Assembly (NCBI GenBank): GCA_949295025.1
Contig: CASFJK010000002.1
Location: forward strand, 21,372-85,371
DNA length: 64,000 nucleotides
Origin: an uncultured Pseudomonadota bacterium
GTDB taxonomy: Bacteria > Pseudomonadota > Alphaproteobacteria > RF32 > CAG-239
Direction of reading: 5' to 3'
Every line of letters starts with the position of its first letter. The stretch's first letter is position 1. The position numbers and the translations under genes were made by a program. A model generated the notes under the pieces. The model did not search any database, had not been told where the DNA came from, and saw only the letters and a list, made by a program, of their open reading frames with translations. Shown here piece after piece: positions 20,806-63,747 of this stretch.

Positions 20806-21700
20806 GCTTGTATATTTGTTTTTTTATGCTATTTTGTCTCTTACATTTTTATTTTTTGATGAATTATTAACAAAAAAATTTATGGAAAAAAACATTATTA
20901 TTAGCAAAATGCTTGAAAAAGAAGTCTATGACATTAAGAGTTGTACTAAAACTTCTAATGAAACATGTCGTTTGGTTTTGCAAAAACAAGGCACAAAAAT
21001 GGTTCGAGATGGATTGTCTTATCTTCAAGTTTCTTCTCTGATGAAAAAAAATAATTTTTTTTGGGGAATCTTGTATGGAAAAAAATATGCATCAGAATAT
21101 GTGGTTCATGTTTTTCCTTATTATGATTCCGGCTGGAAAAGATTTGTCTGGAGTGAAAAAATTGATGAGAATCTCTTGTGTCAGCATAAAGAAATTCCAT
21201 ATAAATTAAGTAAATTCTTAAATTTATATGAGAAAATGCAAACTTTGTTTGTCAAAGGATTGAAATCTTGTTTGCAAAATTATCCTAACGCAGAGAGTTG
21301 CACTTTGTCTCCTGTGTTGGATCTTTATTGGGCTGAATTTCTGTGCTTGTATTTTGACAAAACCAGAGCTTTGAATAGGCTAAGAGTTCTACTTCAAGCA
21401 ATTTCCAAAGATACGCGTATTTTGAATAATGCTAATAAGCCGCTGAGTATAGAGAAATATCTTTGTATGTCTCAGTATATTGATAATGAAAAATGTGATT
21501 ATGAAGTACTTGCTCAAACTTATATAAAGAGCATTTATGAATATTTGCTTTTTTGTTATCAAGCAGATTTGTCTTCTTTAACAGATATCTACGGAACAAA
21601 AGAAAATATTGGTGAGTTTGTCAGTATAGAACATTATAAAAACTATTTGCTTCTATTTGACGCTGTAGATGAGGTTATTGCGTATTTGGATTTTGACTAA
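20804..21700 (+). CDS. Hypothetical protein
   Basis: 298-aa AT-rich ORF with a hydrophobic N-terminus. An alternative start MEKNIII lies at 20882. Confidence 0.45.
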   Translation: MLVYLFFYAILSLTFLFFDELLTKKFMEKNIIISKMLEKEVYDIKSCTKTSNETCRLVLQKQGTKMVRDGLSYLQVSSLMKKNNFFWGILYGKKYASEYVVHVFPYYDSGWKRFVWSEKIDENLLCQHKEIPYKLSKFLNLYEKMQTLFVKGLKSCLQNYPNAESCTLSPVLDLYWAEFLCLYFDKTRALNRLRVLLQAISKDTRILNNANKPLSIEKYLCMSQYIDNEKCDYEVLAQTYIKSIYEYLLFCYQADLSSLTDIYGTKENIGEFVSIEHYKNYLLLFDAVDEVIAYLDFD

Positions 21701-58725: not shown

Positions 58726-60993
58726 ATGTATAAAGAACTTTTGGCGCCGGCCGGTGATATTGAGGCCGGTTATGCTGCGCTTTATTATGGAGCTGATGCG
58801 GTTTATCTTGGTTTGAAAAACTTTTCTGCTCGTGCGACTGCAGCTAATTTTGATGAACAACAACTCAATGAGTTTGTGGCTTTTGCTCATCATCTCAATC
58901 GTAAGGTTTATGTAGCCATCAATACTTTGGTGCAAGAACATGAGATGCCACAGCTCATTCAAACTTTAGATTTGTGCTCAAAATATCATGTTGATGCGAT
59001 TATCATTCAAGATTTGGGCGTGGCACGCATTATTCACGAGCAATATCCCGAACTTGAAATGCATGCCAGCACACAAATGGCCGTTCATAATAAGGAAGGG
59101 GCTTTAGCCTTGCAAAAAATCGGCTTTACACGTGTGGTTTTAGCTCGAGAACTGCATCTTTCCGAAATCAAGGAAATTGCCTCTATTCCCAATTTGGAGA
59201 CCGAAGCTTTCATTCATGGGGCTTTGTGTTATTCTTACAGCGGATTTTGTCTGTTTTCTTCTTTTGAAACCGGAAAAAGTGCCAACAGAGGAAAATGTTT
59301 GTACCCTTGTCGCGCTTCATTTGAAGGTGAGGTCGGTAAAAAGCACTATTTTTCAATGAAAGATATGGCCTTGCAGGAAAAAATCTTGGATATGCCTGTT
59401 ACCTCTCTCAAAATTGAAGGACGCAAAAAGACCGCACTCTATGTTGCTGCCGTTACCGATTATTATCGCCGAATTTTGGATGGGAAAGGTGCTGATAGCA
59501 TTCGAGAAGAACACATCAAGCAGATTTTCTCGCGTCCGTGGACAGATTTTCACTTCAAAGGCAAAAACAAAAATGTCATTGATCGCGATTTTGTCGGACA
59601 TCGTGGTCTGCTTATCGGTAAAATTGAAAAAATTGCCAAAAACAAGCTCTTTTTTAAGACAAATCATAAAATTGCCCGCTATGACGGAATCCAGATTGAT
59701 GTGAGCGGAGATGAAAAGCCGTTTGGTTTTTCTTTGCAATTTTTGAAAGTTAACGGCAAAAATGTTTATGAAGCTGAGAAAAATACGCTTGTCGAAATTT
59801 CTTTACCTCCAAAAACGCCGGAACTTTCTTTGGGTGAAAATATTTATTTGGCGTCTTCAAGTGAAGTGAAGGGGGCTTATCCTTACACCAAACCTAAACC
59901 AAAAGAATTTATGCGTCGTGACGAGGTTAAGGTCGAGGTTAAAGTCAGCCCGACAGAAATTATAGCCGAGGCTAACGGAATGTCAGCCAAAGTTAGCGGA
60001 GAATTTACACCGGCACAGAATCCGGATAAAGTGAAATCTGCGATTGAAACAGCTTTTGCTAAAACCGGTGATACGAATTTTACGCTTGGCGGTATTAACA
60101 TTGATAATCCGAATAATCTGTTTGCGCCGGCATCGCTCTTAAATGAATTGCGTCGCGATTTATATGCGCAAATTACCATTGAAGATAAGCATGGCTCAAT
60201 GCCCGAAATTTCTGTTTCTAGACCGCAACAACTATCACAATGGGTGATTAAGACTGATAATCTTGCCAGCCTCTCACAAATAAATTTAGATAAGGTTGTT
60301 GAGATTGTTTGGCTGATTTCTCCAAACTCAAAAGCAGAAGAACTTAAGACTTTGCCTAAAAATAAAGTTCGTATTGCTTTGCCTGCCGTTTGCCGCAAGC
60401 CACAACTTTATGCCAAATTGATTGCCGAGCTTTTGGCGCAAGGCTATAAAAAATGGGAAATCGGGCATTATTGGGGGTTATCGGTTTTGCCAGAGAAAGG
60501 CATAGATATTTCTTTTGATGCTTCAATTTATACGCTTAACACACAAGCCATAGAACAAGCTAAAGAAATGAAGGCAACGCGTGTTACATTGGTTTTGGAA
60601 GATGATTTATCTAATATGCAAGCGCTTGCAGATAAATCTCAACTTCCGATTTGTATGGTTGTTTATCAAGACAGTCCGCTCTTTACCAGTGCCGATTGCA
60701 TTCGTTCCAACGATTGTAAGAATTGTCCGCAAGGAGAAAAATGGCTGGAACTCAAACGTGATGGCAAAGCTTATCAGGCACTTTCTAAAGATTGTCAGAT
60801 TATGTTGTTCTCTGAAAATCCGTATTGTGTTGCCGCAGAAGCTAAAAATATCAAAGCAGATTTTTATCGCGCGGATTTTTGTTATAAAAAATATACTTCT
60901 GATAAGATTTTGAAAATATTTGAAAAATTAACCAAATTTGAAGATATTTCGCCTTGTAATAAAGCTAATGTGGCCAGAAACGGATTAATGTAA
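58726..60993 (+). CDS. Peptidase U32-family protein with a long C-terminal extension
   Basis: U32 core (EAFIHGALCYSYSGFCLFSSF...RGKCLYPCR) in a 755-aa protein, implying an added DUF3656-like C-terminal domain. Confidence 0.8.
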   Translation: MYKELLAPAGDIEAGYAALYYGADAVYLGLKNFSARATAANFDEQQLNEFVAFAHHLNRKVYVAINTLVQEHEMPQLIQTLDLCSKYHVDAIIIQDLGVARIIHEQYPELEMHASTQMAVHNKEGALALQKIGFTRVVLARELHLSEIKEIASIPNLETEAFIHGALCYSYSGFCLFSSFETGKSANRGKCLYPCRASFEGEVGKKHYFSMKDMALQEKILDMPVTSLKIEGRKKTALYVAAVTDYYRRILDGKGADSIREEHIKQIFSRPWTDFHFKGKNKNVIDRDFVGHRGLLIGKIEKIAKNKLFFKTNHKIARYDGIQIDVSGDEKPFGFSLQFLKVNGKNVYEAEKNTLVEISLPPKTPELSLGENIYLASSSEVKGAYPYTKPKPKEFMRRDEVKVEVKVSPTEIIAEANGMSAKVSGEFTPAQNPDKVKSAIETAFAKTGDTNFTLGGINIDNPNNLFAPASLLNELRRDLYAQITIEDKHGSMPEISVSRPQQLSQWVIKTDNLASLSQINLDKVVEIVWLISPNSKAEELKTLPKNKVRIALPAVCRKPQLYAKLIAELLAQGYKKWEIGHYWGLSVLPEKGIDISFDASIYTLNTQAIEQAKEMKATRVTLVLEDDLSNMQALADKSQLPICMVVYQDSPLFTSADCIRSNDCKNCPQGEKWLELKRDGKAYQALSKDCQIMLFSENPYCVAAEAKNIKADFYRADFCYKKYTSDKILKIFEKLTKFEDISPCNKANVARNGLM

Positions 60994-61054
60994 AAATTTT
61001 TTTGAACCATATTGAAACTCTCGTCGTTATAAATATATGTAAGGGAGGTAAACA

Positions 61055-61309
61055 ATGGAAGATATTTCAAAATTACTCAAAGAAGCAAGACCATTGTATT
61101 TTGCACGCAAGCGTCGCAACAACATCATAAAATCTGTTTGTGCTATGTTTGTTGGTGTGTTTATGCTTAGTTCTTTGTGGCCGCAATCTCAAAGCGAGTT
61201 TGATATCTACGGATATTATTTTATGTTAGATGATAGTACTTTAACATCATCTAACCTCGCAGAATATGGTTTGCCCACTGATGATTATGGACTTTTGATG
61301 GTTGGCTAA
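61055..61309 (+). CDS. Small single-TM protein upstream of the ECF sigma gene
   Basis: 84 aa with strong RBS GGGAGG. The stop overlaps the sigma start (TAAATG). Confidence 0.45.
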   Translation: MEDISKLLKEARPLYFARKRRNNIIKSVCAMFVGVFMLSSLWPQSQSEFDIYGYYFMLDDSTLTSSNLAEYGLPTDDYGLLMVG

Positions 61310-61804
61310 ATGAAAGAGATAATTTCGGAATATGGCGGACTTATCCGGTCCGTAATCAAAAAAATTACCGGTTCTTATAATGAAGATATTGAACAGGAAG
61401 TTTACATTAAAACCTGGAAAAATATGGAAAATTATCAAGAACAGGGAAAATTCTCAAGCTGGCTCAGCACGTTAACAGCCAATGTATGCAGAGATTATTT
61501 CAAATCTAAGCAACATATTATGGAGACAAAGCAAGTCAGTGGAGAGGAAATTTTTGATAAGGTAAAGGTCGGCGGCAGACAAGAAGAGGTGATTGATGCC
61601 AAAAAACGTCAAAAAATTATTCTTAAAGCTGTAGATGGCTTGCCTAGAAAAATGCGCCAAGTGGTGATTTTGTTTGAGTTTGAAGAAAAATCTTACGAAG
61701 AAATTTCTAAAAAACTTGGGTTGCCGGTTGGTACAATTAAATCCAGATTGTTTAATGCCCGCAAAATTTTGAGCGAAAAACTTAAATTCTTGAAGGAGAA
61801 CTAA
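61310..61804 (+). CDS. ECF-subfamily RNA polymerase sigma-70 factor
   Basis: Region 2 (...YIKTWKNMENYQEQGKFSSWLSTLTANVCRDYF) and region 4 HTH (SYEEISKKLGLPVGTIKSRLFNARKIL). 164 aa. Confidence 0.8.
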   Translation: MKEIISEYGGLIRSVIKKITGSYNEDIEQEVYIKTWKNMENYQEQGKFSSWLSTLTANVCRDYFKSKQHIMETKQVSGEEIFDKVKVGGRQEEVIDAKKRQKIILKAVDGLPRKMRQVVILFEFEEKSYEEISKKLGLPVGTIKSRLFNARKILSEKLKFLKEN

Positions 61805-61805
61805 T

Positions 61806-62327
61806 ATGAAAAAAACTTTTTTGACAATGTGTTGTGCAGCTGCTCTTTTAATGGGAGCAACAAATTCTTGGGCTCAAGAAAATGACATGCCGCCACCACC
61901 GCCGCATCATCCGGAACATGCTATTGATGCGCCGAGACCTCATATGCCTCCTCATGAATGGAAAAAAGGTCCAAAATTTGATAAAGAATTCAGAAAAGAA
62001 ATGTCTGATAAGTTTGCTGAAAAACTTGGCTTGACCGATGAGCAAAAGGCAGAAGCTGAAAAATTGCGTGAAGCTAACCGCAAAAAGATGGAACCTTTGA
62101 TGAAGCAAGCTGATGAACTCCGTGAAAAGATGGATGAAATTCGTAAACAAAACATGGAAGATTTTGAAAAAATCTTAACTCCGGATCAAAAAGAAAAGCT
62201 TGATGAAATGAAAGCTAAACGTGAAGCCAAAATGAAGAAAAAAATGGAAAAACGTGCCGAAAAATGGAAAAAAGAGGCAAAAAAAGATAAAAAAGAGATG
62301 AAAAAAGATAAAAAAGATAAAGATTAG
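61806..62327 (+). CDS. Spy/CpxP-family (LTXXQ-motif) periplasmic protein
   Basis: Signal peptide, a Pro/His-rich segment, two LTxxQ motifs (LTDEQKAEAEKL, LTPDQKEKLDEM), and a helical K/E-rich C-terminus. RBS aaggag. Confidence 0.6.
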   Translation: MKKTFLTMCCAAALLMGATNSWAQENDMPPPPPHHPEHAIDAPRPHMPPHEWKKGPKFDKEFRKEMSDKFAEKLGLTDEQKAEAEKLREANRKKMEPLMKQADELREKMDEIRKQNMEDFEKILTPDQKEKLDEMKAKREAKMKKKMEKRAEKWKKEAKKDKKEMKKDKKDKD

Positions 62328-62340
62328 TTTTTTTATCATC

Positions 62341-62377
62341 AATGACAAGCCCCGTATAAATTACGGGGTTTTTTTTA
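62341..62377 (+). terminator. Terminator after the Spy/CpxP-like gene
   Basis: Hairpin ccccgtataaattacgggg followed by TTTTTTTT. Confidence 0.8.
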
Positions 62378-62429
62378 TTGAAAAGACAATTTATGGTGCT
62401 AAACTTATAAAAAAATGAGGAGAAAAATA

Positions 62430-62726
62430 ATGCATTTAGTTGTTTTTGCTTTGGCTTTATATGCTGTGATTGCTGAATGGCGAAACTATAATTTACGCTC
62501 ACAACTGATTAAAAAATCTCAAGTTATTCAAAAATATGTTAAGGATAATACTTATTGGTATGCTAATGTTTTACCGCAAGCAGACAAACTTTGTTTGATT
62601 GAAACAAAAAAAGGCGATTTCATGGTTTCTAAACTCAATGATAAACGCTGGCAGAAAGAAAACGGGGATGTGGATTTTTCCACTATTAAACGTTGGATGT
62701 ATATTGAAGATTTGGAAAAACTCTAA
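62430..62726 (+). CDS. Small membrane-anchored hypothetical protein
   Basis: MHLVVFALALYAVIA... with RBS gaggag 8 nt upstream. The track starts at 62415. The stop overlaps the next start. Confidence 0.4.
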   Translation: MHLVVFALALYAVIAEWRNYNLRSQLIKKSQVIQKYVKDNTYWYANVLPQADKLCLIETKKGDFMVSKLNDKRWQKENGDVDFSTIKRWMYIEDLEKL

Positions 62727-63292
62727 TGACATTACTCATCTTTTTACACGGCAAAGGTGGAAACAAAGATTCTCAAATGGACTTTGTTTCTGATTTGGCT
62801 CAAAAATATAATGCAGAGCTCATTTCTCTAAATGCTCCGTATAAATCTACAATAAAAAAAGATGGTTTCTATTGGTTTGAAAAAGATGAAATCGACGGAA
62901 AACGCAAAGTCAGAATGATGGAGTGGTATTGCTCCTTGGTAATGGCATTGTCTGCTGTGGTTACATTGATGCGAGAAAAAGGTGTGAGCGCCAAAGATGT
63001 GATTTTATGCGGACATTCTCAAGGAGGACTGGTAGCGCTTTATTGTGCTCTCAAACTTGGAGTTAAAGAAGTGATTGCTCTTAATTCTGATGTTCCTGAT
63101 GAGGTTTTTGAAGATATTGCCGATAATCCAAAGGTAAAAATCAAATGGGTGCAGGGGGCAAAAGATGACTTTTTAGATGAAAAAAGAAAAGAATCTTATA
63201 AAAATCTACCTCAAGATTTGGATTTTGAATATATTATCAGCCCGAACTCAACACATAGCCACCTAGATAAAGAAATTTTGGATTTGTTATGA
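62726..63292 (+). CDS. Phospholipase/carboxylesterase-family alpha/beta hydrolase
   Basis: LIFLHGKGGN plus the nucleophile elbow GHSQGG. 188 aa. Confidence 0.7.
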   Translation: MTLLIFLHGKGGNKDSQMDFVSDLAQKYNAELISLNAPYKSTIKKDGFYWFEKDEIDGKRKVRMMEWYCSLVMALSAVVTLMREKGVSAKDVILCGHSQGGLVALYCALKLGVKEVIALNSDVPDEVFEDIADNPKVKIKWVQGAKDDFLDEKRKESYKNLPQDLDFEYIISPNSTHSHLDKEILDLL

Positions 63293-63747
63293 AAATAAGA
63301 AAATTTGCAGAAAAAGATATTCCACAGGTATTAGAAATTTGTCGTGAAATGCGCGAACATCATCGCAAAGTGCTTAATGGTTATTTTAAGCCGATTGATG
63401 AAGCCTATGAACTAAAATCTTTGCAGGAAACACTAACCGATGATGATGTTTTTGCTTTTGTTGCAGAAGAGGGGGATACTATCTGCGGCTGGCTTTGTGC
63501 CGAGTTTACCTCTCGTCCATATTTAGAAAATGAGAGATTTTGCCATGTTTGTGAGCTTGGGGTGTTGCCGGATTTTCGGCGCCGCGGAATTGCCGAAAAT
63601 TTGATGAAAAAGCTCTTCGAAGAAGCCAAAAATCGCGGTATTTCCGAAATTAACCTTGGGGTCTTTAACGATAACACGATAGCTTATAAATTTTATCAAA
63701 AGTTAGGCTTTAAGCCGCTAGAGCAAAAGATGAAAATAAATATTTGA
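63289..63747 (+). CDS. GNAT-family N-acetyltransferase
   Basis: Acetyl-CoA binding motif VLPDFRRRGIAENLM...YQKLGF. ATGA overlap with the upstream gene. Confidence 0.75.
   Translation: MKIRKFAEKDIPQVLEICREMREHHRKVLNGYFKPIDEAYELKSLQETLTDDDVFAFVAEEGDTICGWLCAEFTSRPYLENERFCHVCELGVLPDFRRRGIAENLMKKLFEEAKNRGISEINLGVFNDNTIAYKFYQKLGFKPLEQKMKINI

Follow-up and report, generated by a model that had tools for sequence, protein, structure and literature searches.

What holds a sigma factor of the extracytoplasmic function (ECF) type in check when no recognizable anti-sigma gene follows its own gene? The question is raised by a three-gene operon in a 64,000-nucleotide stretch of DNA (hereafter the window) from an uncultured alphaproteobacterium (GTDB lineage RF32; CAG-239), taken from positions 21,372 to 85,371 of contig CASFJK010000002.1 (GenBank assembly GCA_949295025.1). 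An earlier note, made from the sequence of the window, had described an ECF sigma gene (gene 2) placed between a gene for an 84-residue membrane protein (gene 1) and a gene for a Spy/CpxP-family periplasmic protein (gene 3), and had suggested that either neighbor, or both, might serve as the signaling partner in an envelope or metal stress circuit of non-standard architecture. As reported here, the trio is a real operon, found in uncultured gut Alphaproteobacteria, that very probably activates itself as part of a stress response; the product of gene 1 is, judged by homology, a truncated member of the RsiW-like zinc-type (class I) anti-sigma family that most likely still tethers and inhibits the sigma factor. 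The three genes are as follows.

61055-61309, forward strand: gene 1, a single-pass membrane protein of 84 amino acids and candidate truncated RsiW-like (ZAS-derived) anti-sigma factor, from its open reading frame (ORF) and homology.
61310-61804, forward strand: gene 2, an ECF (group IV) sigma factor of 164 amino acids, from Pfam and TIGRFAM domains.
61806-62327, forward strand: gene 3, a secreted LTXXQ/Spy-CpxP family protein of 173 amino acids, from Pfam and sequence motifs.

The coupled starts described in the earlier note are confirmed. The TAA stop codon of gene 1 directly abuts the ATG of gene 2 (a gap of 0 nt), the stop codon of gene 2 is separated from the ATG of gene 3 by 1 nt, and gene 3 has a strong ribosome-binding site of its own. 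Similar spacing recurs in related loci: for 59 of the 67 compared, a gap of 0 or -1 nt lies between the stop codon of gene 1 and the sigma start, and the gap between the sigma gene and the LTXXQ gene ranges from -4 to +7 nt. Relatives of gene 1 form 24 homologue clusters (39-96% identity), and a scan of species-representative genomes identified 209 loci that encode such a relative, nearly all of them in uncultured gut metagenome-assembled genomes (MAGs) labeled Alphaproteobacteria, 'Azospirillum sp.', Candidatus Scatocola, or CAG:495. The order small protein, sigma factor, LTXXQ protein is constant in every related locus of sufficient length, the flanking genes differ, and the three-gene arrangement is far beyond chance. 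Among close relatives, the ratio of nonsynonymous to synonymous polymorphism (pN/pS) is 0.09 for gene 1 and 0.04 for the sigma gene. Gene 1 is under purifying selection, and its low pN/pS indicates that this small ORF, the translation of which the earlier note had left as a point to be checked, is a translated gene. It should be noted that the titles of three contigs with the same module (L027, L035, and L053) name Lactobacillaceae, Firmicutes, and Bacteroidaceae MAGs; all other records being alphaproteobacterial, these three titles probably reflect mistakes in binning or naming.

In agreement with the earlier note, no recognizable anti-sigma gene follows the sigma gene, which is succeeded by gene 3 and then by a terminator, its stem-loop and T-run called at 62347-62371; the unit includes no other gene. 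A scan of the operon region against Rfam returned no significant match.

62347-62378, forward strand: intrinsic terminator closing the operon, with a 10-bp stem (5 G-C pairs), a 5-nt loop, and then a T-run.

A 103-residue membrane protein encoded downstream (62415-62726, forward strand) was considered as the anti-sigma factor and rejected; its ORF comes after the terminator and, in relatives, shows no synteny with the module. This protein has an N-terminal hydrophobic helix and no family, its gene has a sigma-70-like site of its own at 62378-62405, and its homologues in other loci sit after a gene for a U32-family protein rather than after the sigma module.

Upstream of the operon, and itself preceded by an A/T tract, is a sequence with the AAC of an ECF-type -35 element and the CGT of an ECF-type -10 element, followed by the ribosome-binding site of gene 1.

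61003-61028, forward strand: ECF-type promoter, with -35 TGAAC at 61003-61007, a 17-nt spacer, and -10 CGTT at 61025-61028, from conservation.
61041-61048, forward strand: Shine-Dalgarno sequence of gene 1, AAGGGAGG, read from the sequence.

The motif TGAAC-N17-CGTT stands in every one of the distinct sequences compared from upstream of gene 1 in related loci (61 of 61), with exact spacing and a variable spacer sequence, and it ends 21-28 nt ahead of the gene 1 ATG across these loci. Across the 64 kb of the window, no intergenic match occurs other than the copy at 61003-61028, all other matches being intragenic. Given the invariance of this promoter and its sole intergenic occurrence in the window, the operon is very probably transcribed by its own sigma factor, so that the autoregulation for which the earlier note had proposed a measurement is strongly indicated. 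The aligned upstream regions share a GGAG core at the position of the Shine-Dalgarno sequence, and the promoter and ribosome-binding site together fix the start of gene 1 at 61055, leaving no room for an N-terminal extension. A motif scan of related loci for a wider regulon gave few matches, and these were not conserved. A second match, TGAAC-N16-TCGTT, was found between the LTXXQ gene and a 115-amino acid ORF, with the U32 gene next, and is confined to one lineage (L001, L002, L003, and L015).

Gene 2 is, on the strength of its domain matches, an ECF (group IV) sigma-70 factor, as the earlier note had recognized. It matches TIGR02937 (sigma70-ECF) with 96.2 bits against a cut-off of 42.9 and comprises Sigma70_r2 (residues 5-68, 48.4 bits) and Sigma70_r4_2 (residues 103-153, 58.7 bits) with no other Pfam domain. 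None of the NCBIfam equivalogs matched at its cut-off, the best being PRK12518 with 92 bits versus 208. Its nearest relatives of solved structure are E. coli sigma-E, M. tuberculosis SigE, and B. subtilis SigW, and the 120 proteins listed in a homologue search were all in-clade, at 70% identity or more.

The protein encoded by gene 1 has no Pfam family, and the database names seen for it and its relatives were all 'hypothetical protein' with the exception of one evidently misassigned JGI label. Its hydropathy peaks at 1.54 (19-residue window) at residues 25-43, and three segments can be delimited.

61055-61120, forward strand: cytoplasmic N-terminal segment, residues 1-22, MEDISKLLKEARPLYFARKRRN, a putative sigma-binding helix with a basic juxtamembrane stretch.
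61124-61180, forward strand: predicted transmembrane helix, residues ~24-42, N-terminus inside, from hydropathy and RKRR on the N-terminal side.
61247-61306, forward strand: periplasmic C-terminal motif, residues 65-84, ...S..AEYGLPTDDYGLLMVG, from conservation.

Conservation along the protein, expressed as mean pairwise identity over 59 distinct triplets, is highly uneven. Residues 1-22 are 82% identical, compared with 73-74% for the sigma domains, which makes them the most conserved stretch of the whole module; D3, S5, A11, P13, Y15, R18, R20, and R21 are invariant. The membrane helix is variable (44%) yet always hydrophobic, and the 20 residues that follow it are a periplasmic spacer with 20% identity. 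Identity rises again to 72% in the last 20 residues, which end in GLPxDxYGLLxx (C-terminal peptide GLPTDDYGLLMVG) and in which G72, P74, D76, Y78, G79, L80, and L81 are invariant. Such bipartite conservation is the pattern to be expected if the protein relayed a signal across the membrane between two conserved partners, one on either side. From the predicted N-in topology it follows that the invariant C-terminal motif would be periplasmic and thus in the same compartment as the product of gene 3.

The ancestry of gene 1 became apparent from longer relatives. A profile search with the gene 1 family among 1.84 billion representatives returned 143 clusters, many of which (112-131 amino acids) align over the whole 84-residue protein and carry approximately 36 extra N-terminal residues. 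In these long forms, which are held by at least 623 clusters (90% identity), C5, H23, C27, and C30 are invariant, giving the pattern C-x17-H-x3-C-x2-C, that is, Hx3Cx2C plus an upstream Cys. The best PDB match of the long-form profile is RsiW (5wuq_C; E 1.4e-4), aligned over RsiW residues 22-56 across HLETCEKC and the next helix, and the most common Pfam match of long forms is zf-HC2 (18 of 33). When the short and long forms were compared with hhalign, the probability was 99.65% (E 3.5e-25); the short-form profile alone had no match in the PDB. The P, D, and G of the C-terminal motif are invariant in short and long forms alike, and the motif always stands 2-4 residues from the C-terminus. Moreover, the long forms occupy the same position in a module of the same make-up (long form, ECF sigma factor of 163-165 amino acids, LTXXQ protein of 185-187 amino acids), found in another set of uncultured bacteria from gut and rumen. 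The sigma factor of that module is 42% identical to that of the window and its LTXXQ protein 33% identical to gene 3, and TGAAC-N16-CGTTATA is present at the corresponding upstream place. On the combined grounds of the CHCC pattern of the long forms, their match to RsiW, the agreement of short and long profiles, and the shared position in the module, gene 1 is assigned to an RsiW-like anti-sigma family as a truncated member.

This assignment bears directly on how the locus should be read. Gene 1 is adjacent to an ECF sigma gene, is very probably co-transcribed with it, as the abutting codons suggest, and is connected to established class I anti-sigma factors through the long forms. The zinc signature H-x3-C-x2-C with an upstream Cys or His is missing, since the protein has no His and a single Cys located within the membrane helix, and there is no four-helix anti-sigma domain of at least 50 residues, only ~22 residues being present ahead of the membrane helix. 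A split anti-sigma factor was ruled out within the window and the short-form loci, where a search of six reading frames found no separate small zinc-finger ORF; only long-form loci scored. The suggestion of the earlier note that the upstream protein is the signaling partner therefore stands insofar as gene 1 is the best candidate, homologous to the CHCC long forms, although it is not a new kind of protein. The architecture, rather than being non-standard, is a reduced version of a standard one, because the partner descends, by truncation, from a canonical anti-sigma factor of the zinc type (class I).

Two further sets of relatives are of note. A third form (92-95 amino acids; P0170, P0180-P0184, P0193, P0197, P0203, and P0206) has the same N-terminus without the zinc finger, a longer periplasmic part, and a conserved LYxxLYD ahead of the C-terminal motif. 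In P0239 (250 amino acids), alongside which P0188 (184 amino acids) is listed, the gene 1 N-terminal helix and the start of the membrane segment appear to run directly into an LTXXQ domain that is followed by unrelated sequence. P0239 occurs without a sigma gene and could stem from a natural deletion or fusion, or else from a metagenome contig that is chimeric; a genuine case would connect gene 1 to gene 3 as a Rosetta-stone link.

The closest solved pair for comparison is SigW-RsiW of B. subtilis (PDB 5WUQ). Shared features are the CHCC ligand pattern (in the long-form relatives of gene 1), a single-pass membrane anti-sigma factor with its N-terminus inside, the place of SigW among the closest solved relatives of gene 2, and an operon autoregulated in the one case and very probably so in the other, with a similar -35 element (TGAAAC for SigW and TGAAC here). 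Compared with RsiW, gene 1 is missing the first two helices, the zinc site, and the N-terminal half of the third helix, and its extracytoplasmic part is only ~40 residues long with a different conserved motif. The anti-sigma gene here stands ahead of the sigma gene, whereas in the RsiW case it stands after it, and here the operon includes a Spy-like gene and the hosts are diderm gut bacteria.

What the truncation has spared is of particular relevance. Via the long-form profile, DISKLLKEAKP of gene 1 aligns with approximately residues 46-56 of RsiW, the C-terminal half of helix alpha3', and is followed by PLYFARKRR and the membrane. In the SigW/RsiW crystal structure, helix 1 buries only 489 A2, compared with 1316 A2 in the sigma-4 groove for the C-terminal half of helix alpha3' and 1805 A2 on sigma-2 for the linker and helix after it (PMC5358783). 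The remnant probably still binds the sigma factor, the main reason being that the groove-binding part has been retained and is the most conserved stretch of the module.

Gene 3 matches PF07813 (LTXXQ) with 27.4 bits, above the gathering score of 24.3, and the best solved relatives of its family profile are the E. coli Spy structures (E 9e-5 to 4e-4). By these matches and its predicted signal peptide it is a secreted member of the LTXXQ/Spy-CpxP-ZraP family, the identity given in the earlier note.

61806-61874, forward strand: signal peptide of gene 3, MKKTFLTMCCAAALLMGATNSWA/QEN, predicted by inspection, with the pattern conserved in orthologues.
62031-62045, forward strand: first LTxxQ motif of gene 3, LTDEQ, residues 76-80.
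62175-62189, forward strand: second LTxxQ motif of gene 3, LTPDQ, residues 124-128.

Long helices are predicted at residues 60-74, 78-123, and 126-172, and L76, Q80, L124, and Q128 are invariant in the 38 LTXXQ sequences of the module, all 38 of which match PF07813 at E <=0.01 (best E 1.4e-10). Conservation is concentrated in a core of ~75 residues that holds both motifs; the Pro-rich linker and the Lys-rich basic tail are variable. The Pro/His-rich stretch near the N-terminus, PHHPEH...PHMPPHEW, is present in the window as the earlier note had observed, yet its histidines are not conserved among orthologues, in which only the prolines recur. In the long-form module, the LTXXQ protein has, relative to gene 3, ~31 extra residues placed between the two LTxxQ motifs (L086 4851-5414, L088 4861-5424, and L090 4861-5418), and the protein of L090 scores better against PF13801 than against PF07813. 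PF13801 is the 'heavy-metal resistance' family that includes CnrX, and the two families appear to be related because 14 of the 38 module proteins match both (PF13801 at E <=0.01, best E 8.3e-07; the gathering score is 29.2 bits, and two listed orthologues scored 16.2 and 18.6). Gene 3 itself had no match to PF13801 at E up to 1 and is thus not counted as a member.

Periplasmic proteins that act on the membrane protein beside them are known from several systems. ZraP feeds back on ZraS and RseB on RseA. CpxP, of the LTXXQ family, is a co-induced periplasmic protein that feeds back on CpxA and is titrated by stress (PMC2912261). The transducer here, unlike in the CpxA-CpxP and ZraS-ZraP pairs, would be an ECF sigma/anti-sigma pair rather than a histidine kinase, and any feedback on it is suggested by analogy. 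Anti-sigma factors combined with a PF13801-family periplasmic protein in ECF operons have been described already, in CnrYXH and in ECF281/ECF290 (PMC7826278, PMC6851896). In function, the nearest analogue is the CnrYXH system of Cupriavidus metallidurans (ECF291), an autoregulated operon of three components in which the periplasmic helical protein CnrX modulates CnrY, a very small single-pass class II anti-sigma factor encoded upstream of the sigma gene (PMC6851896). The order here is Y-H-X-like rather than Y-X-H, the gene 3 protein is secreted rather than membrane-anchored, gene 2 is only 22% identical to CnrH, the metal ligands are not conserved, and efflux genes are not linked. Homology of gene 1 to CnrY was rejected, as gene 1 had no match to PF17524, which CnrY itself matched as a control with 174.9 bits, and the hhalign probability was 0.2%. 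In ECF281 and ECF290, ECF operons encode an anti-sigma factor, which in ECF281 is of the zinc-finger type, together with a 'heavy-metal resistance' protein that is periplasmic and conserved (PMC7826278). These differ from the module in order, with the anti-sigma gene at +1 and the periplasmic protein gene at +2 relative to the sigma gene there and the anti-sigma gene at -1 and the LTXXQ gene at +1 in all loci here, and in that the anti-sigma factor is truncated here. A possible example of the ECF281/ECF290 make-up is the A. brasilense operon RpoE8 - hypothetical protein - periplasmic heavy metal sensor (PMC12826043).

Taken together, the explanation that we favor, and hold to be probable with considerable room for doubt, is a self-activating ECF operon with a reduced but still sigma-holding RsiW-derived anti-sigma factor and a Spy-like output protein or modulator. 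The three genes would be transcribed from the sigma-dependent TGAAC-N17-CGTT promoter. Gene 1 would be the cognate membrane anti-sigma factor, having lost the zinc-finger helices and retained ~22 cytoplasmic residues, the transmembrane helix, and a short periplasmic tail with GLPxDxYGLL. At rest, its cytoplasmic segment would tether the sigma factor to the membrane; a signal from the envelope, acting on the periplasmic tail, would free the sigma factor, most plausibly via intramembrane proteolysis of gene 1, and the freed sigma factor would increase transcription of the whole operon. Gene 3 would be a co-induced output chaperone and probably also, by analogy, a periplasmic modulator that binds the gene 1 tail and is displaced under envelope stress. 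Of this scheme, the analysis shows how the operon is built, that its promoter is conserved, that the three genes are inherited together, that gene 1 is homologous to ZAS-type anti-sigma factors, and that gene 3 belongs to the LTXXQ family; binding of the sigma factor by the 22 residues, release by proteolysis, and contact between the LTXXQ protein and the tail are inferred.

Several observations weigh against this explanation. Gene 1 lacks all zinc ligands and the helices that form most of a class I domain, and to our knowledge its 22-residue cytoplasmic part is shorter than any anti-sigma domain; that of CnrY has ~45 residues. An AlphaFold2 model of a gene 1 and gene 2 fusion, with only sigma homologues in the alignment, had a mean predicted local distance difference test (pLDDT) of 58.8 and a predicted template modeling score (pTM) of 0.36, with a pLDDT of 62-65 for residues 1-20. 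The match of the long-form profile to RsiW is modest (25 bits), no zf-HC2 match among the long forms reaches Pfam's threshold, and fold searches with a single-sequence model of gene 3 gave no informative match. Finally, a signaling role for the LTXXQ protein is suggested by analogy with CpxP, ZraP, RseB, and CnrX. A bolder version of the favored explanation, which we regard as tentative and rather doubtful, would make of the same brevity a property of interest. In that version the ~22-residue segment, one amphipathic helix and a basic juxtamembrane stretch reduced from a four-helix zinc-binding domain, would be a complete working anti-sigma domain, the smallest known; its release would be gated by the Spy-like chaperone on the GLPxDxYGLL tail in a CpxP-like titration wired to an ECF sigma factor, possibly with site-2 proteolysis in the absence of a site-1 protease.

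Among the rival explanations, the one that survives best is compatible with most of the favored explanation and departs from it in the last step alone. It holds that the Spy-like protein is the main regulon product, a stress chaperone and not a sensor, and that the signal reaches the anti-sigma factor through membrane perturbation or a protease that recognizes its tail. E. coli Spy is a pure output chaperone, which is counted in favor of this rival, as is the position of the LTXXQ gene at the end of a sigma-dependent operon with its own strong ribosome-binding site. With no other convincing promoter match in the 64 kb of the window, the sigma factor may act chiefly on the operon itself. However, the tail motif and the LTXXQ gene have been inherited together across two lineages that differ considerably (33-42% identity), which suggests more than co-expression, and the LTXXQ relatives CpxP and ZraP, as well as CnrX, feed back on their sensors. 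We consider it possible, if unlikely on balance, that output is the sole function of gene 3.

Still less probable, in our estimate, is that gene 1 is a relic that no longer inhibits the sigma factor and has kept a membrane or periplasmic job, such as anchoring or regulating the Spy-like protein via the C-terminal motif. The sigma factor would then be under positive promoter feedback only or under an unlinked regulator. This would accord with the absence from gene 1 of all four zinc ligands and of the helix-1 contact that class I domains use for sigma-4 (PMC7406223), with the lack of a separate zinc-finger ORF in the window or in the short-form loci, and with the failure of the fusion model to give a confident complex. 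It is difficult to reconcile with the distribution of conservation in the module, since the cytoplasmic 22 residues are its best conserved part, which would be unexpected for a purely periplasmic function, and the segment that has been retained corresponds to the large groove-binding motif of RsiW rather than to a dispensable part. The translation coupling between gene 1 and the sigma gene also fits stoichiometric partners.

Metal sensing of the CnrYXH type, in which the His-rich N-terminus of gene 3 would bind a transition metal and signal to the small anti-sigma factor so that the sigma factor directs metal resistance, is improbable: the CnrYXH-like layout (PMC6851896), with the gene of a small single-pass anti-sigma factor before the sigma gene and with a helical sensor in the periplasm, the PF13801 matches among module proteins, and the PHHPEH...PHMPPHEW stretch speak for it, but the histidines of that stretch vary, gene 3 falls outside PF13801, gene 1 is unrelated to CnrY, gene 2 is distant from CnrH, and none of the examined loci has a linked efflux pump or metal transporter, so that the metal-stress circuit of the earlier note is not upheld.

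The genes that surround the operon include a 755-residue U32-family protein just upstream of the module (58726-60993, forward strand), with PF01136 and DUF3656 and partial TrhP/UbiU matches. A U32 gene was present within the fetched flanks, on either side, in 34 of 85 related loci (e.g., L001 6224-8957 and L004 2738-5442). Further upstream, a 465-residue protein (57229-58626, forward strand) has a type II/IV secretion ATPase in its C-terminal half (PF00437 T2SSE, residues 248-387, E 1.1e-28), and its first ~200 residues are a low-complexity region rich in Q, N, S, P, and T with no family match. Downstream, at 62726-63747 (forward strand), an alpha/beta hydrolase (PF02230, 188 amino acids) and a GNAT acetyltransferase (152 amino acids) are encoded with a 4-nt overlap (63289-63292); both appear ordinary.

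The module of gene 1, sigma factor, and LTXXQ protein is thus a variant of a known design and not a new kind of system, widespread but unnamed. Recognition of gene 1 as a reduced RsiW-type anti-sigma factor would give the genomes that carry it an interpretable envelope-stress circuit. The module also presents a natural experiment on the minimal anti-sigma domain, with the full CHCC domain in one set of bacteria and a 22-residue remnant in the other, whereas sigma factor, promoter type, and periplasmic partner are common to both. If the remnant still inhibits, it would be a minimal sigma-binding peptide, of use in building synthetic ECF switches; otherwise, the module would document the loss of anti-sigma control in an ECF system. 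In either case, the conserved C-terminal tail beside a Spy-like protein is a candidate for chaperone-gated signaling.

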